A stretch of 64,000 nt of DNA from Cenarchaeum sp. (GTDB taxonomy: Archaea; Thermoproteota; Nitrososphaeria; Nitrososphaerales; Nitrosopumilaceae). The number at the start of each line of letters is the position of its first letter. Within the stretch, counting starts at the first letter, position 1. A program made the translations under genes and the position numbers. The DNA is taken from assembly GCA_965212015.1 (NCBI GenBank), contig OZ243037.1:1344001-1408000 (forward strand), read 5' to 3'. Shown here piece after piece: positions 4,602-58,574 of the stretch. Below the pieces are notes generated by a model that did no database searches, was not told the DNA's origin, and worked only from the letters and a program-made list of their open reading frames with translations.

Positions 4602-5358
4602 TTCTTGCCCTCCCGGCGAGGTTGGCCCTAATCTCCCTGATGCTTGATGCCAGGTTTTTTCCGTTATCAAAACAGTCCACTATTTTTTCCAGCTCGCGCC
4701 CGCTCTTTTTGGAATATGTACCTGCCATGCGCACCAGCACCCCCATCCCCCTCGTTATATTGTCCACGATTGAGACGCTGGCCGTCTGCGAGGTCCTTGA
4801 GAGGGGGTTGAGATCAAACGTTATGACTTTTTTGCCCGCCCCTACCAGCGCGGCCGTCCTGTCCCCGTCCTCCAGGGGAACCAGTACCACGTCGGCACAA
4901 AAAATGCCGTCCGCATCAACAAACCTGCGCGCCGAGTCCGTTCCGGAAAGACGCCTCGATGACTTTGGATTCGTTCCCAGAACGCGTCTGGCGCCGTGTT
5001 TTTTTAGCGCCGCCGCAACGTCGCGCATTCTTTTTGCGCTGGAATAAAACAGGTTCACCTCTATTTGCGCCCCGACTGACTCTGAGAGCTCTATAATCTC
5101 GCCGGGACACAATGCTGCCACGTTGCCGTTGACTGAAATCACGGGTCTTTGTGCCAGCAGCAGCATGGCAGCTGCTGCACCGAGCGCCTTTTTGGCCGCA
5201 CTCCCGGTGCTCTCGCCTAGCAGATAGTCAAAGGCCTCTCCGCGTCCGTGGGCCAGCAGTCCCTCCCTTGCAACCAGGCCGCAGTCAAATCCCCTGACCA
5301 GCCTCTCCCTTGTCTGCAGGGATTCGAATCTGGGATGGGTTTTGGGAATTACAGTCAT
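4594..5358 (-). CDS. Archaeal phosphopantothenate synthetase (PPS)
   Basis: IPKTHPR, AHGRGEAFDYLLGE, ISVNGNVAAL, VPLEDGDR, DLNPLSRT. Confidence 0.93.
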   Translation of the reverse strand: MTVIPKTHPRFESLQTRERLVRGFDCGLVAREGLLAHGRGEAFDYLLGESTGSAAKKALGAAAAMLLLAQRPVISVNGNVAALCPGEIIELSESVGAQIEVNLFYSSAKRMRDVAAALKKHGARRVLGTNPKSSRRLSGTDSARRFVDADGIFCADVVLVPLEDGDRTAALVGAGKKVITFDLNPLSRTSQTASVSIVDNITRGMGVLVRMAGTYSKKSGRELEKIVDCFDNGKNLASSIREIRANLAGRARIA

Positions 5359-6251
5359 TTCCAGCTCTGCACTGTGGCACCGTCATTATCAATCTCCGAG
5401 TTTATGACAATGCCCTCCGGGTATCCCCTTAAAACCTCCAGCACCACACCCTCCATCTCTTTTGGAACCAGCGTAAAGACGGTCTCGCCGAACAATGCCA
5501 CCCCGCATCTCACCGAGATGTCCCTCAGCTCGCCTATCACGGAATTCATCTTTGGCGTCATCACCTTTACGTATCGCGCAAATTCCAGCGACATGTCATG
5601 AAAGTCGTCATAGCTTCTCGAGCGGGCCAGCCTTGAGACCATCTTGCCGCCAAGGCCGTTTATCAGCTCCATCCTCTCGTCCATGAACTTTCTAGTGGAT
5701 ATGGGCGAAAAACAGATCAGGATTGCCCTTCTGTCGGACTCTATCTTTTCTAGCCTGCCTATTCCCGGCGCCCCCGGCCTGGTTCTTATCTCAAAGCCGC
5801 CGTGGTACGACGCCAGCACGTCGCCCAGCCCCGTCTTGCAGCCAAGCTCCGCACAGTGTGCCACCTGCCCGACCTCCTCCCTTGACAGGCCGGTGCCCAG
5901 CGCAGAATCCAGCGCCATTGCCAGCGATAGCGCCACTGCGCCGCTGCATCCCAGGCCGTATCCCACGGGCACGGATATCTCGTGCTCTATATCGACAAAA
6001 TACTTTTTCCCGGTCATCTTGAAGAACTCGCCAATGACACACTCTGAGACCCGCGTATCATCCGGCCTGTATCCTGATATGTATATTCTGTGGCCCGCCT
6101 TGCTCGAGGGGGATGCCCGAACCCCAGTCACCACGCCCTCACGCATCGAAAAGCCCGCACCAAGCGAGCCGAGTTTTCTGGGATCCCGCTCCCCTGTCTC
6201 TGCCTTGAAGAACCCCGTGACATGCGCGGGGCAAAACGCCATTCCTCTCAT
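5355..6251 (-). CDS. Archaeal pantoate kinase (GHMP family)
   Basis: PAHVTGFF, GSLGAG, PVGYGLGCSGA, TGLGDV; lies in the CoA cluster. Confidence 0.92.
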   Translation of the reverse strand: MRGMAFCPAHVTGFFKAETGERDPRKLGSLGAGFSMREGVVTGVRASPSSKAGHRIYISGYRPDDTRVSECVIGEFFKMTGKKYFVDIEHEISVPVGYGLGCSGAVALSLAMALDSALGTGLSREEVGQVAHCAELGCKTGLGDVLASYHGGFEIRTRPGAPGIGRLEKIESDRRAILICFSPISTRKFMDERMELINGLGGKMVSRLARSRSYDDFHDMSLEFARYVKVMTPKMNSVIGELRDISVRCGVALFGETVFTLVPKEMEGVVLEVLRGYPEGIVINSEIDNDGATVQSWK

Positions 6252-6316
6252 TGATCTAAATTTAAATTTCTAGGAAAATATAAAAATATGGCTTAAATAA
6301 TATAAATCGGTATAAA

Positions 6317-7303
6317 TTGACTAAATACGTTCGACGCCTACAACGCATAGGCAGCAGCACGCTGGTAACGCTGCCAAAGGACTGGGTGGACTCTAACGGC
6401 CTGACAAAAAACGCCGAGGTGGAGCTGGATACGGGGCAGAACTCTGTCACGATAACGCCGAATCAAAAGTCAAAGCCGGCCAAGGAGATTACGATATCGT
6501 ATCCGCTGCCGCCCGACGAGAACATTGCAGCCGACCTGACTGGCGCATACCTGCTAGGATACGACGTCATCAACATCAAGAGCAGGACATCCATTCCCGT
6601 CGGCGACAGGGAAAAAATCAGAAACTCCATGCGCAGGCTGGTTGGAATGGAGATCATCGAGGAGGACTCGACTGCGATAAATATGCAGTTTCTGCTAGAC
6701 GCCGTCACGCTAAACCCGCAAAAAATCCTCAAAAGGATAGGCAACATTGTGCTGGGAATGTACGGCGACATTACATCCGGGCTGATAGACGGCGACAAGT
6801 CAAACCTCCGCACCATATCTGACAGGGACAACGAGGTAAACAGGCAGTACTTTTTACTGGTCCGGCTGATAAGGAGCACCATGATCGACAGGAGGCTGGC
6901 AAACGCCTTCAATCTTGAAAACATAGACGTGCTTGACTACAGGATTGCGGCAAACCTGCTAGAGCGCGCAGGCGACACCATAGTGGAGCTTTCCAACTCG
7001 GTCTATTCGACGACGGTCCCAAAGTCGTACCTCAAAAAGATCCACGGCATTGCCAAAAACCTGGAACCGATGGGGACAAAGATAATCGACGCCTTTATCA
7101 ACAACGACCGCAAGCTGGCCATCGAGTCAATTGCGCTGCACAAGGCATTCGAGGGGCGCATACAGCTCATAAAGTCGTCGCTTGAAAACAAAAAGCAGAT
7201 CCCGATTGACTATCTTGACCTGGTCTACACGTTTGAGCGCGTCGAGCGCTCCTGGGCGGACATTGCCGATCTTGTAAAGCCGACATACTCCACTCAGACC
7301 TGA
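6317..7303 (+). CDS. AbrB-PhoU family phosphate uptake regulator
   Basis: N-terminal RRLQRIGSSTLVTLPKDW (AbrB-like); PhoU repeats DNEVNRQYFL, LERAGD. Confidence 0.85.
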   Translation: MTKYVRRLQRIGSSTLVTLPKDWVDSNGLTKNAEVELDTGQNSVTITPNQKSKPAKEITISYPLPPDENIAADLTGAYLLGYDVINIKSRTSIPVGDREKIRNSMRRLVGMEIIEEDSTAINMQFLLDAVTLNPQKILKRIGNIVLGMYGDITSGLIDGDKSNLRTISDRDNEVNRQYFLLVRLIRSTMIDRRLANAFNLENIDVLDYRIAANLLERAGDTIVELSNSVYSTTVPKSYLKKIHGIAKNLEPMGTKIIDAFINNDRKLAIESIALHKAFEGRIQLIKSSLENKKQIPIDYLDLVYTFERVERSWADIADLVKPTYSTQT

Positions 7304-49534: not shown

Positions 49535-50689
49535 GTGGAAAAGGTTTGCGTTCTTGGTGCGGGAAGCACCAAATACGGAAAATTACAAGACAGCATTTCC
49601 GATATAACGGTCCGGGCCTCGATTGACGCAATTCAAAGCGCAGGGATTGATCCCAAGGACATCAAGGCCGGCTATATCTCAAACGTCTTTGGCGTCGCCG
49701 ACAAGCAGGTACACCTGGGACCGGTAATCATGAGCAATCTTGGAATACCGGAGAGGCCCTCGCTGTCCATCGAGTCGGCCTGCGGCAGCGGATCCGTCTC
49801 GTTCAGGGAGGCGTTTGCAAACGTGGCAGCGGGATTCTACGACGTAGTCCTGGTTGCCGGAACAGAAAAGGTGACGCATACCGGAACCGAATGGACCACG
49901 ACTTATTTCTCGTACTGTTCGGATTTCTTTTACGAGGGGCAGGCCGGCGCGTCGTTTCCGGGCCTGTTTGCATCGATGGCCAGGGCGTACCTGTCGGAGT
50001 TTGACGCCACCGAGGAGGATTTTGCAAGGGTGGCAGTAAAAAACCACGAAAACGGGCTGCTCAACCCAAAGGCGCACCTGCGCAAAAAGATCACAGTCGA
50101 CGACGTGATGAATTCTGCGACAGTCGCAAGCCCGCTCAAGCTTTATGACTGCTGCCCGTTTTCTGACGGCGCCAGCTCTGTCATCCTGTGCAGCGAAAAG
50201 TTCGCCCGCGAGCACGGCGGCGACTATGTCCGGGTCATCGGCTCCGGAAGGGGAGGATCGCCTGCGGCACTGCAGGATCGCGCCCACATGACTACCATCC
50301 CGAGCACAAAAATAGCGGCGGATGCGGCCTACAAGATGGCAGGAATTACCCCAAAGGATGTAGATTTTGCCGAGGTCCACGACTGCTTTACCATCGCCGA
50401 AATAGTCGACAGCGAGGATTTGGGGTTCTTTGAGAAGGGCAAGGGCGTCGAGGGCGTGCGGGAGGGCCAGACCTCAAGGGACGGCCAGATACCGATCAAC
50501 CCGTCAGGCGGGCTAAAGTCAAAGGGCCATCCGATCGGCGCAACGGGGGTGGGACAGGTAGTCGAGGTTTATGATCAACTGACTGGCAATGCGGGTCAGA
50601 GAACCGTACGGGACGCCAAAGTCGGCCTGACCCACAATTTCGGCGCAACGGGGGCCAGCTGCGCGGTCCACATCTTTCAGGGAGTGTAA
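49535..50689 (+). CDS. Acetoacetyl-CoA thiolase (archaeal type)
   Basis: ESACGSG, EVHDCF, NPSGGLKSKGHPIGATG. Confidence 0.93.
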   Translation: MEKVCVLGAGSTKYGKLQDSISDITVRASIDAIQSAGIDPKDIKAGYISNVFGVADKQVHLGPVIMSNLGIPERPSLSIESACGSGSVSFREAFANVAAGFYDVVLVAGTEKVTHTGTEWTTTYFSYCSDFFYEGQAGASFPGLFASMARAYLSEFDATEEDFARVAVKNHENGLLNPKAHLRKKITVDDVMNSATVASPLKLYDCCPFSDGASSVILCSEKFAREHGGDYVRVIGSGRGGSPAALQDRAHMTTIPSTKIAADAAYKMAGITPKDVDFAEVHDCFTIAEIVDSEDLGFFEKGKGVEGVREGQTSRDGQIPINPSGGLKSKGHPIGATGVGQVVEVYDQLTGNAGQRTVRDAKVGLTHNFGATGASCAVHIFQGV

Positions 50690-50690
50690 A

Positions 50691-51056
50691 ATGTCCGGCA
50701 AGCAAGAGTTTGTAAAACAGGCCAAGGAGGGAAACGTCCTTGCGCACAAGTGCGCAAAGTGCGGCAACCTCTGCCTGTCTACTGTCTATTTCTGCCAGAA
50801 ATGCGGCGCCAGGGACTTTGAGGATGCCGTATTCAAGGGGACCGGGACGGTGGCCACATACACGATAATCACGGTTCCGCCGGCAGGGTTTGAAGAGCAT
50901 ACGCCATATGCCTGGGTGGTGCTCAACCTGGACGGCTCCAAGCTGCGGGTGTCCGGATTCATGGCCGGAATCGCAAGCCCGGACGATCTCTTGGTCGGCT
51001 CGCCTGCCAGAATAACCGGCTTTGACGAGCGCGGGATCCTGCTAGAAAAGCGCTAA
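50691..51056 (+). CDS. DUF35 Zn-ribbon/OB-fold thiolase partner
   Basis: CAKCG...CQKCG, GTVATYT, PY; adjacent to thiolase. Confidence 0.9.
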   Translation: MSGKQEFVKQAKEGNVLAHKCAKCGNLCLSTVYFCQKCGARDFEDAVFKGTGTVATYTIITVPPAGFEEHTPYAWVVLNLDGSKLRVSGFMAGIASPDDLLVGSPARITGFDERGILLEKR

Positions 51057-51124
51057 AATAATTCATCATTATCATTAAAAAAACCAAAGCACGTTTTTAT
51101 TTATCCTAAAGGTGGATCATCTGT

Positions 51125-51286
51125 ATGTCCGTGGATGTCACGTGTGGTAAGTGCGGTGAAAAGATTACCACGATGAAAATGCTAAAGCCACTCAAGGACG
51201 TGCTGAATCCATACAACGGAAAGTGTCCGTCGTGCGGGCAGGCGCTGTCGACATCCGAATTCTCGCTAGATGTCGACGAGAACTGA
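51125..51286 (+). CDS. 53-aa zinc-ribbon protein (not in ORF track)
   Basis: MSVDVTCGKCG...GKCPSCGQALSTSEFSLDVDEN. Confidence 0.75.
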   Translation: MSVDVTCGKCGEKITTMKMLKPLKDVLNPYNGKCPSCGQALSTSEFSLDVDEN

Positions 51287-51350
51287 TCGTAATCTGCGAT
51301 AAACGTTCTAGTCACAAGTCTTATTTAGCTCTTTTTTTTACACATGGATC

Positions 51351-53441
51351 ATGGAGCTTAGCGAGGACATCGAGGAGCCAAAGAGGGACGGCATCCTGCA
51401 GTCCACGTCAAAGCGCGTGCGGATGATCTTTTCTGTAATGGCAAGCCCCAACAGGATTGACATACTCCGGATCCTCAACTCAAAGGGCCCGCTGACCTAT
51501 TCTGAGCTAAAGTCGCTGGCCGGATTCAAGTCAAAAAAGGAGAGCGGCAAGTTTGCCTATCACCTGAGAAAGCTGCTAAGGCAGTCCCTGGTGGCGCTAA
51601 ACAAGTCCGAGCGCCGCTATACCATAACCAACCTTGGAAAGCTGGTTCTGAGCCTCGCCCGGCAGATCGAGGAGCGGTCGATAATCGAGAGCGGCAAGAT
51701 GTACGTGAGGACGTCGCACGAGTCAATCGAAGAGTTCAACTCGCACAAGATAATCCAGTCCCTGGTAAGGGAGGGAAGCCTTCCCCTGGAGCTGGCCCAA
51801 AAGATCACAGAGGAGGTCGAAAACCGCATCTACAAGTACCAGACCACCTACCTGACCGGATCCCTGATACGGGAGATGGTCAATTCCGTCCTGCTCGAGC
51901 ACGGCCACGAGGAGTACCGCAACAAGCTCGTGCGGCTGGGACTGCCAGTATACGACGTCCTGGAGATGATGTCAAACGTGGACATTGTAAACAACGGGGC
52001 AGAGGGCATACTATCCAGGACCGGACAGGCGATATTCTCAGAAAACCTGCTCACAAACATGCTGCCAAAGGACGTGGCGGACTCTCACCTGTCAGGCGAC
52101 TTGCACATAACGAACCCGGGAATCTGGTCGCTATTGCCGGACATTTTGTTTGTCAACATCAAGGAGCTAATCGAGGACGGCCTTGATCTTGGCGGCAAGT
52201 TCCTTGACGTTTCCAGATTAAAGTCAGTAAAGACGCTTGACGACCTGTCAGTCGCCATATCGATGATAATGTCGCTCATCTCAAAGGAGGCCTCACAGGA
52301 GATAGTGTTCAGCGGAATTGCGCAGCTGTTATCCAAGCACTCAAAAAACATACCCGAGCTTGTAACAAAGGTTACCAACGCGTTCATATCTGCGTCGACT
52401 GCATCAAAGTACAACAAGGATCCCACGCTGATCTCATTCGTGCTGCAGATGGGCACGGATACAAAAACAAACAATGCGGTAATCGAGGCGTACAAGAACT
52501 ATGTAAGAATAACGCCGCTGCCCAGCATCGGCCTGGTAATTGATCACACAAAGACGAAAATCTCTGATGTCTCTGCTGAGCTTTCCGAGATAATTGCGCT
52601 GGGCGGAAGAATAATCATCGGCAAAAAGACAATGTCCAACCGCGCAATAATTCCCAGCACGACAAAGAGCTCCACGCTGTCGATAAACCTGCAGTCCATA
52701 TCGATAAACCTGCCAAGACTTGCATTCGAGTCAAACAAGGACGAGACATACTTTAGGGCAAGGCTTGCCCTGCTGATGAAGCCGGCGATATCGTCGATGG
52801 GGCTGAGAAAAAAAGAGATTGCCGATTTGACAAGGCGCGGACTCAATCCAATCCTTGCAAAAAACACGCAATACATGCAGCGCGGCTCGATCACACTTGT
52901 TCTGAATCTCACCGGGTTGCGCGAGGCAATCTTTAACATACTTGGCTATACCGAAAACAAGGCCGGCCGCGACGTGCTCTACAAGGTAGTCGAGACTGCA
53001 ATCGATGTCGCAAAAAAGAAGGGCAAGGAGATCGGCGACGACGTGAAAATCTGCATGACCGAAAGCGACGGCTCTACCAGGTTTGCAACCATGGACGGCG
53101 AAAAATACGGCAAGAACTCTGTACTGAAAACAATAGAGTCGGACTCTTATTCTGACGGGATGACACTAGATGCCGCAGACGTCGCCGGCCTTACGGCAAA
53201 AAGCGATCAGATTACAGAATGCAACAGGCTGGCCAAGACCCTCAACGGGGGCCTCTTGGTGAGCCTAAAGATAGGCAGGGAGCTTGGCGCAGGCGACATC
53301 AAAAAGGCCATAGAAAAGACCGCCGATCTCGTAGGATCCTTCAGGCCGGTCCAGCAGGTTCCGATCTGCGGCGGATGCGGCTTTAAGGACGAGACGCTCT
53401 CTGAAAAGTGCCCAAGGTGCAAATCCCCGTATATCATCTGA
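51351..53441 (+). CDS. ArsR-type wHTH + ATP-cone + degenerate class III RNR (NrdD-like) fusion
   Basis: SPNRIDIL..L...LTYSEL..FAYHLRKL (wHTH); MYVRTS..IEEFNSHKI...IREMVNSVL (ATP-cone); DSHLSGDLHI, SINLPRLA, RFATMD, CxxC..CPxC (NrdD). Confidence 0.85.
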   Translation: MELSEDIEEPKRDGILQSTSKRVRMIFSVMASPNRIDILRILNSKGPLTYSELKSLAGFKSKKESGKFAYHLRKLLRQSLVALNKSERRYTITNLGKLVLSLARQIEERSIIESGKMYVRTSHESIEEFNSHKIIQSLVREGSLPLELAQKITEEVENRIYKYQTTYLTGSLIREMVNSVLLEHGHEEYRNKLVRLGLPVYDVLEMMSNVDIVNNGAEGILSRTGQAIFSENLLTNMLPKDVADSHLSGDLHITNPGIWSLLPDILFVNIKELIEDGLDLGGKFLDVSRLKSVKTLDDLSVAISMIMSLISKEASQEIVFSGIAQLLSKHSKNIPELVTKVTNAFISASTASKYNKDPTLISFVLQMGTDTKTNNAVIEAYKNYVRITPLPSIGLVIDHTKTKISDVSAELSEIIALGGRIIIGKKTMSNRAIIPSTTKSSTLSINLQSISINLPRLAFESNKDETYFRARLALLMKPAISSMGLRKKEIADLTRRGLNPILAKNTQYMQRGSITLVLNLTGLREAIFNILGYTENKAGRDVLYKVVETAIDVAKKKGKEIGDDVKICMTESDGSTRFATMDGEKYGKNSVLKTIESDSYSDGMTLDAADVAGLTAKSDQITECNRLAKTLNGGLLVSLKIGRELGAGDIKKAIEKTADLVGSFRPVQQVPICGGCGFKDETLSEKCPRCKSPYII

Positions 53442-53635
53442 AATTCGAAAATTTTGAGCTGTTTTCGATGCGGCCACCACCGTCGGCGTGACTTTATTCA
53501 GATCTACCGGGACGGATCAATCCACCGGTATGACGTTCATAATAGCGGTGTCAATATTTTTGAACCCCGACGGACAGATTTTTTGTAGAATCATTTATAC
53601 GCATATTCATTTTACTAATTTTGAGGACATTATAA

Positions 53636-56284
53636 TTGGACAATTCCACCATAGAATCGACTATCGGCGAGATCAGAAAGCGAAACGGCAAGGTAGACAG
53701 CTTTAACATCGACAAGATCTCAAATGCCATATTCAAGGCCCTGTCTGCCACCTCCAAGGCAGATCGCGATCTGGCAGAAAACCTTGCAAGGGGCGTGGCC
53801 ACAAAGCTCATGGAGCAGGGGTTTTCGGCCTCAAGGCAGCCCAGCGTGGAGAACATTCAGGACATGGTCGAGATTACCCTGATTGAAAACGGCCACGGCG
53901 AGATTGCAAAGGCGTACATTCTGTACCGAAACGAGCGCAGCATGGTCCGCGACGAAAAGATGAGGGTCCTCAACTCCCAGAGCCTGGATCCGGTCGCAAA
54001 GTTCTTTGATCTCAACTGCCTGCGCGTTTTGGCATCCAGATACCTTCTCAGGAACAACAAAAACGAGATCACAGAGAGCCCCAGCCAGATGTTTGAGCGC
54101 GTGGCGATCCTGATCGGCATCGGGGATCTGCTGTATGACGGCGAGATATTCGACAGGGACGGCCGCTCAAAGCAGGACGAGGAAGTGGCCAAAAAATACC
54201 TTGAAAAACTCGACAGTTTTGACTACAAATTCAAGATAGGCGACTATTACCTGAACAAGTACCACCTCAGATCCCTTGTCAACCATTATGTCGCCCTGGC
54301 AGACAAGGGGCAGATAAAAATCGGCTTTAAGGACCTGCTGACAAAGATAGCCGGAAAACAGTTCAACAGGTATGCAGATAAAATCAAGGAGTATTACGAG
54401 TTAATGACATCACAGGACTTTCTTCCAAACTCGCCCACAATGATGAACGCAGGCGGAAGGCTGGGACAGCTGTCTGCGTGCTTTGTGCTTGACATGCCAG
54501 ATGACATGGAGGCAATCATGAAGTCGACGTCAGACGCCGCGCTGATCTTCAAGTCCGGCGGCGGCGTGGGAATAAACTATTCAGACCTGCGCCAAGAGGG
54601 CGACATTGTCGCCTCCACGTCCGGCGTGGCATCCGGCCCCGTCTCGTTTATGAACATTATCAATACCGTGACTGAGGTCGTAAAACAGGGCGGCAAAAGG
54701 AGGGGCGCCAACATGGGAATCATCGAGGCGTGGCATCCCGACGTGGAAAAATTCATCACAAACAAGACGGAATCCGGCGTGCTGGAAAACTTTAACGTCA
54801 GCGTCGGAATCTGGGAGGATTTCTGGAACTCGCTTGTCAACTCTAAAGACGGCAAATACATGCTCAGAAGCACGCGCGAGCGCACTCCCGTGCGCGAAAT
54901 CAATGCGCACCAGCTAATCGACCTCATTGCGCTGTCCGCGTGGAAGAGCGCAGAGCCGGGGCTCATATTCTTTGATCAGATAAACAAGTACAACGTTTTT
55001 GCAAAGGCAAGAGGCGGGCCGCTGCGCGCGACGAACCCGTGCGGGGAGCAGAGCCTGTACCCGTACGAGTCGTGCAACCTGGGATCAATCAATCTTGCCA
55101 ACCTTGTAAAGCGAAAGGCAGACGGCGAGTACGAGTTTGACTGGCAGAGATACGAGGAGACGATTAGAAAGACCACCAGGTTCCTTGACAGCGTAATTGA
55201 CGTGAATCTCTATCCGGTAAAAGAGATAAACACCGCCTCCAAGGATTCCAGGAGAATCGGACTGGGGGTCATGGGCGTGGCGGATCTATTATACAAGCTG
55301 AGAATTCCGTACAACTCCAAGGAGGGCTATGAGCTACAGTCCAAGCTTGCCGAGGCCCTTACCTACTATTCCATGGAGGAGAGCGTGGCCCTGGCAAAGT
55401 CTCGGGGCGAGTTTCCGCTGTGCTCAAAGACAGAGTATCCGGAGGGCAGGATTCCCGTCGCGGGATACTATGAAAGGCCAAAGGACGAGCACACGTACGA
55501 CTGGGACGCACTCATTGACAAGATAAAAATACACGGAATCCGGAACGTCCTGACGACCACGGTGGCCCCCACGGGAACACTCTCGATGCTTGCCGACTGT
55601 TCCAACGGCATGGAGCCCACGTTTGCGCTGGTCTTTGAAAAGCGCGTAACTGTCGGGCGGTTCTTTTACACCAACAAGATAATAGAGCAGGTACTGCGCG
55701 ACAACGGGCTGTACGACAAAAAGATACTCGAAACGATTGCAGACAATTACGGATCCCTCCGGGGCCTTGAGGAGATTCCCGAATGGATGCAGAACATCTT
55801 TGTGACGGCGATGGACATACACTGGTCTGACCACCTCATGGCGCAGGCCGTATGGCAGGAATGGATCGGCAATGCTATAGCAAAGACAATCAACATGCCG
55901 TATGACGTCTCTGCTGACGACGTAAAGGCGGCATACCTGCTGGCCCACGAGATGGGCCTCAAGGGAATCACGGTATACCGCGACGGCTCGAGGCACAAGC
56001 AGGTGCTGCACATGACCAGTGAGAATGCAGAAAAGTCCTTTGACGTCGTGCCAAGCGACTATCTTGTACAATACGTAGAGGGGAACATACACAACACGTA
56101 CATAAAGTCCCAGGTTGACGCGGCGCTGAGCTTCAAGGCGTCTGACAAGCCGCAGATGGAGCAGAACATCTCTGAGGAGGAGACAGAAAAAACACTGTGT
56201 CCCAACTGCAAAAACAAGCTGGTCTTTGTGGAGGGGTGCAGCATATGCATAGACTGCGGCTTTAGCGGATGCACGTCCGGATAG
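53636..56284 (+). CDS. nrdJ: Adenosylcobalamin-dependent class II ribonucleotide reductase
   Basis: N-terminal ATP-cone (IRKRNG), PNSPT, LSACFV, TNPCGEQ, ESCNLGS, APTGT, C-terminal Cys cluster. Confidence 0.95.
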   Translation: MDNSTIESTIGEIRKRNGKVDSFNIDKISNAIFKALSATSKADRDLAENLARGVATKLMEQGFSASRQPSVENIQDMVEITLIENGHGEIAKAYILYRNERSMVRDEKMRVLNSQSLDPVAKFFDLNCLRVLASRYLLRNNKNEITESPSQMFERVAILIGIGDLLYDGEIFDRDGRSKQDEEVAKKYLEKLDSFDYKFKIGDYYLNKYHLRSLVNHYVALADKGQIKIGFKDLLTKIAGKQFNRYADKIKEYYELMTSQDFLPNSPTMMNAGGRLGQLSACFVLDMPDDMEAIMKSTSDAALIFKSGGGVGINYSDLRQEGDIVASTSGVASGPVSFMNIINTVTEVVKQGGKRRGANMGIIEAWHPDVEKFITNKTESGVLENFNVSVGIWEDFWNSLVNSKDGKYMLRSTRERTPVREINAHQLIDLIALSAWKSAEPGLIFFDQINKYNVFAKARGGPLRATNPCGEQSLYPYESCNLGSINLANLVKRKADGEYEFDWQRYEETIRKTTRFLDSVIDVNLYPVKEINTASKDSRRIGLGVMGVADLLYKLRIPYNSKEGYELQSKLAEALTYYSMEESVALAKSRGEFPLCSKTEYPEGRIPVAGYYERPKDEHTYDWDALIDKIKIHGIRNVLTTTVAPTGTLSMLADCSNGMEPTFALVFEKRVTVGRFFYTNKIIEQVLRDNGLYDKKILETIADNYGSLRGLEEIPEWMQNIFVTAMDIHWSDHLMAQAVWQEWIGNAIAKTINMPYDVSADDVKAAYLLAHEMGLKGITVYRDGSRHKQVLHMTSENAEKSFDVVPSDYLVQYVEGNIHNTYIKSQVDAALSFKASDKPQMEQNISEEETEKTLCPNCKNKLVFVEGCSICIDCGFSGCTSG

Positions 56285-56679: not shown

Positions 56680-57276
56680 TTGAGGGTAAAATGCGATTCA
56701 AACGGGATCAGCCAGGCGGTAAATGCCGTCCGCGCAGGCAAGGTCATCATCTTTCCGACGGACACAGTCTACGGGATGGGTTGCGATCCCTTTGATGCGG
56801 ACGCAGTAAGGGCGGTTTACGGCCTCAAGCGGCGCCGGGCCTGCAAGCCGCTTCCGGTACTGGGATACTCTGGAGACGATCTTTCTGTTATAGCCGAGCT
56901 GGGGGAAATGCACGAAAAAATCACCTCGAGATTCTGGCCGGGCCCGCTTACCGTCGTCACCGGGGTAAGGGACGAAAGGATAAGGCAGTCACTCGGGCTG
57001 GCAGACAAAATCGCAGTAAGGGTGCCCCGGGGCCGATGCGTGCGCGAAATACTCAAAGAGTGCCGGCTCTTGGTGGGGACCAGCGCAAACGTATCGGGGG
57101 AAAAGCCGTTTGTTGATCCGCAAGAGTGCCTCCAAGCGTTCGGGCAGGTTCCGGTATTTGTGGACGGGGGGGCAATAGCCGGCGGGGTGGAATCCACCAT
57201 AGTGGAGCTGGACTGCGACGGGGTAAGGATTCTGCGCAAGGGCGGGATTGCCGGGGAGCTGCTCGGGACGCCTTGA
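56680..57276 (+). CDS. tsaC: Threonylcarbamoyl-AMP synthase (TsaC/Sua5 YrdC domain)
   Basis: FPTDTVYG, LKRR..KPL, FWPGPLT, TSANVSG, STIV. Confidence 0.92.
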   Translation: MRVKCDSNGISQAVNAVRAGKVIIFPTDTVYGMGCDPFDADAVRAVYGLKRRRACKPLPVLGYSGDDLSVIAELGEMHEKITSRFWPGPLTVVTGVRDERIRQSLGLADKIAVRVPRGRCVREILKECRLLVGTSANVSGEKPFVDPQECLQAFGQVPVFVDGGAIAGGVESTIVELDCDGVRILRKGGIAGELLGTP

Positions 57277-57791
57277 ATCTGATCGTTACGTGCCCCAGGC
57301 ACTTTGAGGAGGATGCGGCAGACGAGATCTCCGGCATACTAGACGGCATGGGCGCAGACCTGACCGTTCAAAAGAGCCGCTTTTCTGGAATCCTGATGGT
57401 TGATGCAAAAATCAGCCCTGCCGCCGTCTCGCGGCACATCCGGGAGCGCATACACGACGAACCGTGGTCTGTCAGGTACATACTCAGGACGATACCGGTG
57501 CAAAAATGGATTGCAACTGACATGGAGCAGATTGTAGCCGAGTCGCAAATACTCGCCGGGACAATACGGGCGGATGAAAAGTACAGGGTTACGGTGGAAA
57601 AAAGGGACTCTGAAATATCCTCGCGCGACATAATCTCCAGAATCGCCGACCTGATGGAAAATGAGGTCTCGTTGGAGGCGCCTGACAGGATAATACTCGT
57701 CGAGATACTCGGGGATCATACCGGGCTGTCGGTGATAAGTGCCGATGACATACTCAGCGTCGAAAGGGAAAAGCGCAGAATCTCAGAATAA
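57273..57791 (+). CDS. THUMP-domain protein
   Basis: LIVTCPRHFE, YRVTVEKR, VSLEAPD.II.VEI; TTGA overlap with tsaC. Confidence 0.85.
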   Translation: MNLIVTCPRHFEEDAADEISGILDGMGADLTVQKSRFSGILMVDAKISPAAVSRHIRERIHDEPWSVRYILRTIPVQKWIATDMEQIVAESQILAGTIRADEKYRVTVEKRDSEISSRDIISRIADLMENEVSLEAPDRIILVEILGDHTGLSVISADDILSVEREKRRISE

Positions 57792-58550
57792 TACTGCGGC
57801 GCGCTCTACTAGAATGTCCTCCAGCGGCACCCTTGACTCGACTGCCCGGATGTGCGTTTTGGTTATGCCGAATTCCTTCATCAAAAACCCCTCGTTTTTT
57901 TTGGGCGGACTGGCATCAAGCTGGGGCCGCAGCGTGTGGTGCATCCTGTCAAGCATGGCGCCCGGCCCCACTGCCACGAGCAAAAACCTGTCCTTTTTGG
58001 CAATGCCTACCTTGGAGATTGCATACGAGATCTGATTCGTTCCGGCAAACCTCATTAGCATGTCCGTCTCTAGCTTTTTGGACAGCATGATGCCGTGTTT
58101 TTGCGCATACAGGGAGATTAGCAGTATCCTTTGCACGTGGGATCTGCCCATTACATAGTCTGCCGATATTGCCTGTATGGCCAGCCGGGGAAACTCTTTG
58201 CGGAGACAGTCCAGAAACTGCACGTTCGAGTCCCCGTCGCGCCTGACAGAAAAGATCTCGGCGTTTTTGCCCGCCTTGAGCCGCACCCTTGGCGAGCCGC
58301 CGTGGATGACGGGGATTATCGACACCGTGTCCCCGGAGCGTATCGGCGCAGACTTTCCGCCCGTTATGGCAGAATCGGCGCCGTTAATTGCAACTATTGT
58401 GTTGGCCGCGTCAAACTCCATTGTTTCATCGGGTTTTTTTGCAAGCAGATAGTCTAGCAGCTCCTGCACCGTGAGCTCGTCCTTTTCAACCGGCATGGAA
58501 TCGGCGCGGAACGATTTTTTGGCGCCGCCAAGAAACTTTACCGTTATCAA
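57783..58550 (-). CDS. cgi121: Ubiquitin-like (MoaD/ThiS) domain fused to KEOPS subunit Cgi121
   Basis: ITVKFLGG...VAING...IIPVIHGG then SKKLETDMLMRFAGTNQISYAI..GI. Confidence 0.85.
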   Translation of the reverse strand: MITVKFLGGAKKSFRADSMPVEKDELTVQELLDYLLAKKPDETMEFDAANTIVAINGADSAITGGKSAPIRSGDTVSIIPVIHGGSPRVRLKAGKNAEIFSVRRDGDSNVQFLDCLRKEFPRLAIQAISADYVMGRSHVQRILLISLYAQKHGIMLSKKLETDMLMRFAGTNQISYAISKVGIAKKDRFLLVAVGPGAMLDRMHHTLRPQLDASPPKKNEGFLMKEFGITKTHIRAVESRVPLEDILVERAAVLF

Positions 58551-58574
58551 TTCAAAATCCCGCATCCGTGCAGG

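Follow-up and report, generated by a model that had tools for sequence, protein, structure and literature searches.

Ribonucleotide reductase and its described regulators

Control of ribonucleotide reductase (RNR) sets the supply of deoxyribonucleoside triphosphates (dNTPs), and hence the fidelity of replication, and bacteria use NrdR for this control. In the class III enzyme (NrdD) of Escherichia coli, the residues with catalytic roles are Cys175, Cys384 (thiyl radical of the finger loop), and Gly681 (glycyl radical). Among enzyme-derived regulators, PutA, BirA, and NadR are known as trigger enzymes or pseudoenzyme sensors, and these proteins keep their catalysis. According to one NrdR study (PMC9110341), NrdR is rare in archaea, and its boxes are found upstream of the transcription start site, with which they also overlap. 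All RNR classes need a thiyl radical at the tip of the finger loop (PMC8463856, in part). Here, we describe a locus in a 64,000-nucleotide stretch of Cenarchaeum sp. (contig OZ243037.1, positions 1,344,001 to 1,408,000; hereafter the window), in which two open reading frames (ORFs) lie 194 bp apart on the + strand. One (51351-53441, 696 aa, ATG start) is a regulator-candidate gene that joins a winged helix-turn-helix (wHTH) domain, an ATP-cone, an inactive NrdD-like barrel, and a Zn ribbon, and the other (53636-56284, 882 aa, TTG start) is nrdJ, its presumed target gene, which encodes an ATP-cone and an adenosylcobalamin-dependent class II RNR.

The genome consists of one contig of 1,764,220 bp, is 99.74% complete, and carries archaeal amoA; as an ammonia oxidiser, the host is presumably aerobic. 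A first-pass annotation of the window, made from its sequence alone, had called the downstream gene an intact B12-dependent nrdJ, and NrdJ is indeed full-length, with 713.2 bits against TIGR02504 (cut-off 399.95), the PF02867 barrel matched along profile positions 1-523 of 523, and an ATP-cone of 79 bits in which the canonical Lys-Arg (KR) pair is kept (IRKRNG). When the whole genome was searched, this was the sole class I/II RNR barrel, and only two ATP-cones were present, one in NrdJ and one in the 696-residue protein.

With NrdR, the fused protein shares a gene position next to RNR, the combination of a DNA-binding domain with an ATP-cone, and candidate palindromes upstream of the RNR gene; its modelled cone also aligns to NrdR chains, and the protein occurs where NrdR is missing. 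In contrast, the two show no homology over the whole protein. The DNA-binding domain is an ArsR-type winged helix in place of the NrdR Zn ribbon, no KR pair is left in the cone, an inactive NrdD barrel of 500 residues is attached, and the candidate sites precede the TATA box. To NrdD, the likeness comprises the fold, the N-terminal ATP-cone, the four-cysteine Zn ribbon, the NLPR, H..G..H, R577, D582, and Y600 columns, and a predicted homodimer, whereas the catalytic cysteines, the RVxGY tail, and an NrdG in the genome are lacking, a wHTH is added, the TIGR02487 score is low, and the host is aerobic. As for the ArsR/SmtB repressors, the protein exceeds the HTH_20 cut-off and its best N-terminal fold matches are AntR, CzrA, SmtB, and HlyU, but the NF033788 score is below cut-off, a cone and a barrel stand in place of the metal site, and dimerisation is predicted to proceed via the barrel. 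Finally, like PutA, BirA, and NadR, it combines an enzyme scaffold with a DNA-binding domain and is encoded beside the pathway it would control, but unlike them it has lost its radical machinery, as have all 96 fused members examined.

In the full-text literature, subscription journals and supplements aside, we found no published description of a wHTH-NrdD fusion. Similarly, no case of an RNR-derived regulator was found in print, and no archaeal RNR regulator in the literature searched. Neither Thaumarchaeota nor an HTH nor a pseudoenzyme is mentioned in the searched text of PMC3019208 and of a bioRxiv preprint (10.1101/2022.04.23.489257), the supplements of which may list these sequences. Judged from its sequence, the protein would be an RNR-linked, cone-bearing regulator candidate built on a pseudoenzyme scaffold.

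Domain architecture and predicted fold

The first-pass annotation had read the 696-residue product as an ArsR-like wHTH, an ATP-cone, an NrdD-like barrel, and a terminal Zn ribbon, and all four are present by Pfam match and residue position, as are the motifs it quoted, SHLSGDLHI (residues 245-253), SINLPRLA (451-458), RFATMD (577-582), and CPRCKSPYII (687-696, followed by the stop). The wHTH (residues 26-100; 51426-51650, + strand) is matched by DUF7347 along its whole extent with 40.9 bits (cut-off 27.6) and by HTH_20 at residues 30-82 with 32.6 bits (cut-off 27), while the metalloregulator subfamily model NF033788 is not reached (24.2 bits versus 55). Its predicted recognition helix spans residues 62-77 and includes GKFAYHLRKL (66-75). 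Next comes the divergent ATP-cone (residues 117-200; 51699-51950, + strand), which PF03477 matches at residues 117-189 with 35.1 bits (cut-off 25.8; profile positions 1-75 of 88) and which scored 38.5 bits in the genome-wide search. The NrdD-like barrel (residues 201-665; 51951-53345, + strand), recognised by the NRDD family PF13597 with 85.2 bits (cut-off 26.2), retains SHLSGDLHI and NLPR (453-456), and the canonical NrdD columns kept are H246/G249/H252, NLPR, G522/E525, R577, D582, Y600, and GG633-634. The chain closes with the Zn ribbon (C673/C676/C687/C690; 53346-53438, + strand), which was assigned from the cysteine positions and the NrdD alignment. Against the NrdD equivalog TIGR02487, the protein reaches 81.6 bits, far under the cut-off of 326.35, whereas canonical NrdDs of the same phylum reach 330-600 bits.

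An AlphaFold2 model from a 93-sequence alignment had a predicted local distance difference test (pLDDT) value of 91.7 and a predicted template modelling (pTM) score of 0.85. Searched with Foldseek against the protein data bank (PDB), it gave class III RNRs as the best hits (PDB IDs: 9dca, 4col, 8p2c, and 1hk8; E 2e-20 to about 1e-12), with the matched structures coming from S. thermophilus, T. maritima, P. copri, and phage T4; in fact, the top 35 ranks were all NrdD chains (E 2e-20 to 9e-13). A whole-protein sequence search of solved structures had returned marginal matches only (9d3x, E 0.13; 1h78, E 0.36), so that the fold search was needed. Residues 1-200 were also folded separately (pLDDT 82), and this N-terminal model matched AntR, CzrA, SmtB, and HlyU with target template modelling scores of 0.63-0.74, albeit at weak E-values (8e-3 to 5e-2). 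The cone portion of the same model aligned to the NrdR chains 9a6n_B (80 columns, rmsd 2.4) and 9fxk_F, again with weak E-values.

We also modelled residues 201-696 as a homodimer, which gave an ipSAE of 0.81 (0.81-0.82 in three runs) versus 0.00 for the best of three controls, with contacts that agree to at least 94% between runs and a partner pLDDT of at least 82; since solved NrdD dimers exist, this pass may reflect only the memory of the model or the likeness to them. Among proteins solved as pairs, 20 of 30 pass the ipSAE mark applied, compared with 1 of 23 among those solved as single chains.

Loss of the catalytic apparatus

Two alignments were examined. In the first, the 696-residue protein was placed, together with 20 relatives, beside the NrdD of E. 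coli and seven canonical NrdDs from Thermoproteota (570-600 bits with TIGR02487); the second had 105 sequences, comprising 96 wHTH-fused members and nine canonical NrdDs. The protein contains only six cysteines (568, 624, 673, 676, 687, and 690), none of them within residues 1-567, and the earlier remark that cysteines are absent from the catalytic positions holds for the columns of both E. coli C175 and C383/C384. The C175 column has a cysteine in 9/9 canonical NrdDs and in 0/96 fused members, and likewise in none of the 20 relatives of the first alignment. At the C383/C384 column, the CC(R/x)L of the finger loop, the 696-residue protein has none, and a cysteine within one column of C384 is found in 5 of the 96 fused members. 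A glycine occupies the G681 column in 12/96 (in one of these by spurious alignment of a short tail), and no fused member among the 96 retains more than one of these three radical residues.

The C-terminal end was described correctly in the first-pass annotation as stopping right after CPRCKSPYII and before the glycyl-radical loop. Here, six residues follow the final CxxC of the Zn ribbon before the chain ends, and the canonical YSRVVGY...WN.GK (RVxGY) tail, with the G681 column, lies beyond. Three of the four Zn-ribbon cysteines (673, 687, and 690) occupy cysteine columns common to canonical NrdD.

A separate glycyl-radical domain together with an NrdG activase, by which activity would be restored, was looked for genome-wide, and neither was found. 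The Gly_radical domain PF01228 has no match in the whole genome, and the lack of an NrdG noted earlier for the neighbourhood extends to the entire genome, as no ORF exceeds the cut-offs (best TIGR02495 51.9 versus 131.15; best TIGR02491 32.5 versus 126.1). The best NrdG-like radical-SAM ORF scores highest with the QueE model (68.6 bits, under its cut-off) and lies beside folE. The check for nrdR proposed in the same annotation likewise gave no TIGR00244 match in the genome, with a control that was positive in 9 of 14 reference genomes.

With no cysteine in either column, no glycyl-radical tail, and no activase in the genome, the known class III RNR mechanism is not open to the 696-residue protein, which is, with very little room for doubt, a catalytically dead descendant of such an enzyme. 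Conceivably, it could still act as an RNR or other radical enzyme with non-canonical residues or an unfamiliar radical source. The intact fold and Zn ribbon, the confident model, the anaerobic RNR name in public records, and the few distant relatives that retain an RxxG(Y)-like tail (P0222, for instance) or have a cysteine ahead of the conserved arginine would fit such activity, but we regard it as very improbable, given the absence of any cysteine in residues 1-567, the genome without tail, activase, or Gly_radical domain, the TIGR02487 score of 81.6 versus 326.35, and the 0/96 fused members with two of three radical residues.

Among the distant long forms (see below), a minority (P0222, P0188, P0198, P0211, and others) keep an RxxG(Y)-like tail, for instance RRLGY, without either cysteine, and five other fused members have kept the cysteine before the conserved arginine and lost the glycine. 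These distant members look like intermediate stages of decay.

ATP-cone divergence

In the cone of the 696-residue protein, VRTS (119-122) replaces the canonical V.KRDG, such that lysine is changed to threonine and arginine to serine at the KR columns. This replacement is general, as the two positions hold threonine in 74 and serine in 87 of 93 family members. The Tyr-Arg that follows (Y189 and R190) and R195 are retained. According to PMC11226230, the basic residues with which P. copri NrdD coordinates nucleotide triphosphates include Lys7 and Arg8. The altered cone may bind something, and sensing of nucleotides through either the cone or the barrel pockets seems to us a tentative proposition, somewhat short of an even chance.

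Distribution, constraint, and origin of the fused family

A word-index search, in which 8000 candidates were scored, gave 4127 homologues at E ≤1e-3, and the best 120 of these share 73-83% identity over at least 98% of the length and all have the same four Pfam domains; the nearest are named after Nitrosopumilaceae. A representative library held 1124 relatives at E ≤1e-3. As the first-pass annotation had suspected, public record names do present such proteins as anaerobic RNRs. Within a sample of 201 Nitrososphaeria genomes (including one, G114, flagged as unpublished), a homologue of the 696-residue protein is found in 195, and in 177 of the 178 high-quality genomes and 52 of the 55 genera. 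With this distribution and the strong domain conservation described next, a relic or pseudogene was ruled out.

Conservation differs between the domains. Across 119 close homologue clusters, the wHTH has a median identity of 100%, with 73 of 75 residues (97%) invariant, and the linker helix and ATP-cone have medians of 100% and 99%, respectively, while the barrel has a median of 62-71%, with 103 of 465 residues invariant. For scale, NrdJ identity is 75-84% in the closest ~100 of those genomes. The strongest constraint is therefore on the DNA-binding and cone module. Moreover, the recognition-helix residues G66, F68, A69, Y70, H71, and L72 are invariant between the forms from ammonia-oxidising archaea (AOA) and those from Bathyarchaeia.

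These Bathyarchaeia proteins are longer (740-780 aa), have the same wHTH, cone, and NRDD architecture (256-316 bits), and keep a degenerate tail such as YGRSSAQYTPLKWW, in which the glycine is replaced. A scan of GTDB species genomes with an alignment of the long form gave 560 confirmed relatives, and the best 80 of these are from Bathyarchaeia metagenome-assembled genomes (MAGs), except for one labelled Thermoproteota archaeon and one labelled Krumholzibacteriaceae. In a FastTree phylogeny of the barrel (489 columns, 105 sequences), the fused forms make up one group, and the short AOA forms are nested among the long ones; we take this tree as tentative, because only nine canonical outgroup sequences and no support values stand behind it. 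Going by these sequences, the fused family predates the ammonia oxidisers, and the AOA form appears to be a truncated derivative of the long form, now placed before nrdJ.

A few genomes depart from this pattern. The Nitrososphaeria without a clear homologue are mostly in one family (f7), where 5 of 10 genomes have weak matches (E 1e-4 to 3e-8) and 5 have none, and in another (f12) the single genome has none; all genomes of both families have NrdJ. In the only other genome of the Cenarchaeum genus (L075, G131:C1:1751000-1761000, at 4999-7076 on the - strand), the orthologue goes out of frame around residue 492, with its remainder read as a distinct 184-aa ORF, and the nrdJ downstream is intact; this loss of frame could be either a real frameshift or an assembly error. 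The Krumholzibacteriaceae case is a long-form locus (L141, DATKLC010000012.1) in a MAG labelled Candidatus Krumholzibacteriaceae bacterium, and its contig is probably misbinned, with transfer as the alternative.

Pairing with RNR genes of two classes

NrdJ is found in all 201 Nitrososphaeria genomes. Of the 140 for which coordinates are listed for both genes, 130 have nrdJ directly after the fused gene in the same orientation, at a distance of 106-855 bp (median 227). The synteny that the first-pass annotation proposed to test is thus conserved. The remaining 10 comprise an adjacent divergent pair (G012), a 5-kb inversion (G082), three genomes of genus g12 in which the two genes are unlinked on one contig (G099, G135, and G190), and genes on different contigs in a fourth genome of that genus (G095) and in four other cases.

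In the Bathyarchaeia, the RNR neighbour, where there is one, is of a different class. Here, 30 of the 54 long-form loci with at least 2.5 kb of downstream flank have an nrdD-like gene that begins, in the same orientation, under 1.5 kb downstream, and among the best 80 loci none has an RNR gene upstream of the long form. For example, in G418 a 773-aa long form is followed by an ATP-cone NrdD that scores 643 bits, and in Ca. Bathyarchaeum tardum a 740-aa long form is followed by a glutaredoxin and then by an NrdD that keeps both the CC and RVTGY. This pairing with two mechanistically unrelated RNR classes points to a role in ribonucleotide reduction as a process rather than in class III chemistry.

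Further genes were also noticed in the intervening DNA, namely a glutaredoxin gene between the long form and nrdD of a Bathyarchaeia locus (L131, 8471-8776) and, spotted by eye, a short CPxC ORF in the same position in G418 (L072, about 6080-6200). Aspartate carbamoyltransferase genes (pyrB and pyrI) adjoin the long form or nrdD in two loci (L160, 8228-9746; L072, 2945-3865).

Candidate DNA sites upstream of nrdJ

We aligned the regulator-to-nrdJ spacers of 29 Nitrosopumilaceae loci (30 were fetched, one of them without a detectable nrdJ start). They show conserved blocks within otherwise diverged sequence. One such block is a palindrome, TATGAAnTTCATA, which is exact in 23/29 spacers and present with at most one mismatch in 26/29, whereas shuffled spacers give such a match about 0.15 times per 29. 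In the window, the candidate operator is the copy TATGACGTTCATA (53529-53541, unstranded), which is one mismatch from the consensus. About 21 bp downstream of the palindrome, an offset that is the same in most rows, there is a second site, GTCAA-N5-TTGA, exact in 16/29 and with at most one mismatch in 24/29. It corresponds in the window to TGTCAA-N5-TTGAAC (53549-53565, unstranded), and contains the TCAA-N5-TTGA at 53551-53563 that had been offered earlier as a weak candidate; this is present as described and conserved within Nitrosopumilaceae, and not detectable outside. A further element, ACGATCATCGT, is conserved in relatives and not present in the spacer of this window.

All 29 aligned spacers have a TATA-like hexamer 44-48 nt before the start codon. 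In the window, TTTATA at 53594-53599 (+ strand), 37-42 nt ahead of the nrdJ start codon, is probably the TATA box of this gene, and GAGGA at 53623-53627 (+ strand) may be a ribosome-binding site. The candidate palindrome and N5 site are about 60 and 40 bp upstream of this TATA box. Archaeal activators typically bind upstream of TATA, and repressors overlap the BRE/TATA or the start site. The position of both sites, upstream of TATA, therefore suits an activator no less well than a repressor in the style of NrdR.

Genome-wide, TGTCAA-N5-TTGAAC occurs exactly once, and the palindrome with at most one mismatch at five sites; a scan of the genome for both motifs and for ACGATnATCGT did not find a second convincing site. 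In five complete Nitrosopumilaceae genomes, exact palindromes other than at nrdJ number 0-2 each, versus 0-1 for a reversed-pattern control. There were also no Rfam matches at E up to 1 within 51000-54000, so these conserved blocks do not belong to any known riboswitch or RNA family. Around 75-77 Bathyarchaeia loci, which are mutually related, recurring inverted repeats were seen, and we regard these as uninformative as to an operator.

One spacer is unusually long (L038, G129:C3:192304-197388), measuring 570 bp as against the usual figure of about 207 bp. In it, the palindrome/N5 module is displaced ~360 bp further from nrdJ, beside which stand a second, partial module and a TATA box.

Proposed role and alternative explanations

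On balance, we favour the view that the 696-residue protein is a homodimeric, sequence-specific DNA-binding transcription regulator that derives from an RNR and acts on an RNR gene. In this scheme, the barrel would dimerise as in NrdD, so that a pair of N-terminal winged helices of ArsR type would face a palindrome within the 194-bp spacer, the candidate targets being TATGAAnTTCATA and TGTCAA-N5-TTGAAC. The divergent ATP-cone, the emptied nucleotide pockets of the barrel, or both, might then do the sensing through which transcription of nrdJ is tied to the nucleotide pool. A more ambitious version, which we hold tentatively and with less than even confidence, is that of an archaeal functional counterpart of NrdR, that is, an ancient family of disarmed class III RNRs with a winged helix that would read the (d)NTP pool through their former substrate, specificity, or cone pockets and switch transcription of whichever RNR the lineage uses, nrdD in the anaerobic Bathyarchaeia and nrdJ in nearly all AOA. 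As such a counterpart, it would probably be an activator bound upstream of the TATA box. The first-pass annotation had proposed an enzyme scaffold repurposed as a regulator that reads ATP/dATP. The regulator part of that proposal gains from the Bathyarchaeia fusion encoded before nrdD and from the near-invariant wHTH, while the ATP/dATP part became doubtful with a cone that lacks Lys-Arg.

Several observations weigh against our preferred reading. Canonical reading of ATP/dATP by this cone is doubtful, because the triphosphate-coordinating Lys-Arg pair is Thr-Ser in the sequence; in addition, the last helix of the cone has a seven-residue deletion, with the Pfam match confined to profile positions 1-75 of 88. 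As to gene order, in genus g12 the fused gene is unlinked from nrdJ on one contig (G099, G135, and G190), and 24 of the 54 Bathyarchaeia loci have no RNR gene downstream. The near-total invariance of the wHTH is unusual for a local regulator of one gene. As to the DNA sites, part of their conservation in the 29 spacers is shared ancestry, as these come from related genomes, and in the five complete genomes the exact palindrome is at nrdJ in three and absent in two (G004 and G044). Before nrdJ in 16 distant loci that could be oriented (Nitrososphaeraceae and other families; four further loci, not oriented, were left out), the motifs are at chance level, except for an exact GTCAA-N5-TTGA in L095 and a palindrome with two mismatches in L084, and yet the predicted recognition helix is nearly the same in lineages where the motifs are not detected. 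Upstream of the regulator gene itself, the two motifs are not above shuffles, so autoregulation via these sites is not supported.

Some of these points would sit better with a global DNA-binding factor, either one of replication, repair, or the cell cycle that is coupled to dNTP supply, or a chromatin protein, for which nrdJ would be one target or a mere neighbour. A wHTH with 97% of its residues invariant, in genera between which NrdJ identity amounts to only about 75-84%, would be in keeping with this, as would a gene near-universal in the class Nitrososphaeria, motifs that are untraceable beyond one family despite a conserved recognition helix, and relatives that adjoin pyrB/pyrI or have no RNR nearby. 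Nonetheless, the two motifs are near-unique in the genome, the extra palindromes elsewhere stay within the range of the reversed control, and the close, co-oriented linkage to RNR genes of two classes would be difficult to account for without an RNR-specific role, for which reasons we consider a global factor unlikely.

Slightly less unlikely, though still well behind regulation of the gene, is a partnership at the protein level, in which the ligands of the dead barrel and cone would be (d)NTPs or the active RNR (the protein serving as an allosteric decoy, buffer, chaperone, or inhibitor) and the wHTH would only tether the protein to the nucleoid or bind another protein. Synteny alone fits regulation of the gene and of the enzyme equally well, and the barrel is still under constraint (62-71% identity, 103/465 residues invariant) and keeps several canonical NrdD columns. 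Moreover, in our rough tree its closest canonical relative is the type of NrdD that is encoded adjacent in Bathyarchaeia, which makes a heterodimer conceivable there. In the AOA, however, the neighbouring enzyme is class II and thus of a different family, so a heterodimer through the NrdD interface is unlikely, and yet the synteny persists. That the wHTH and linker are the most constrained parts points instead to DNA or to a fixed macromolecular partner, and palindromes are found where a dimeric wHTH protein would be expected to bind. Regulation of the RNR gene by the fused protein remains our preferred reading.

Implications for archaeal RNR control

The fused family is near-universal in ammonia-oxidising archaea, which have a large part in nitrogen cycling, and widespread in Bathyarchaeia. 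If the proposed role is true, it would offer these two large archaeal groups a directly testable answer to how RNR is regulated, and would show plainly how a whole radical enzyme can be reused as a sensor domain. It would also widen the repertoire of ATP-cone proteins beyond RNRs and NrdR, as that repertoire is outlined in PMC11226230. For annotation, the correction matters in its own right, since the name 'anaerobic ribonucleoside-triphosphate reductase' in aerobes can mislead metabolic reconstructions on anaerobic capacity.

Neighbouring genes in the window

Upstream of the regulator gene by 64 bp is an unlisted 53-aa ORF (51125-51286, + strand) that is Zn-ribbon-like, with two CxxC pairs, and has Pfam zinc-ribbon matches below threshold only. 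Immediately upstream of the locus, a thiolase gene is followed by a ChsH2-type gene with a Zn ribbon and OB-fold (49535-51056, + strand), a pair that we take to resemble the archaeal thiolase/DUF35 pair. On the other side of nrdJ, there is a Sua5/YrdC gene (56680-57276, + strand), and near it a 260-aa ORF (57783-58565, - strand) in which a ThiS/Urm1-like N-terminus is joined to a CGI-121 (KEOPS Cgi121) domain. Two t6A-related genes are thus neighbours here, one of them with an unusual ubiquitin-like fusion.

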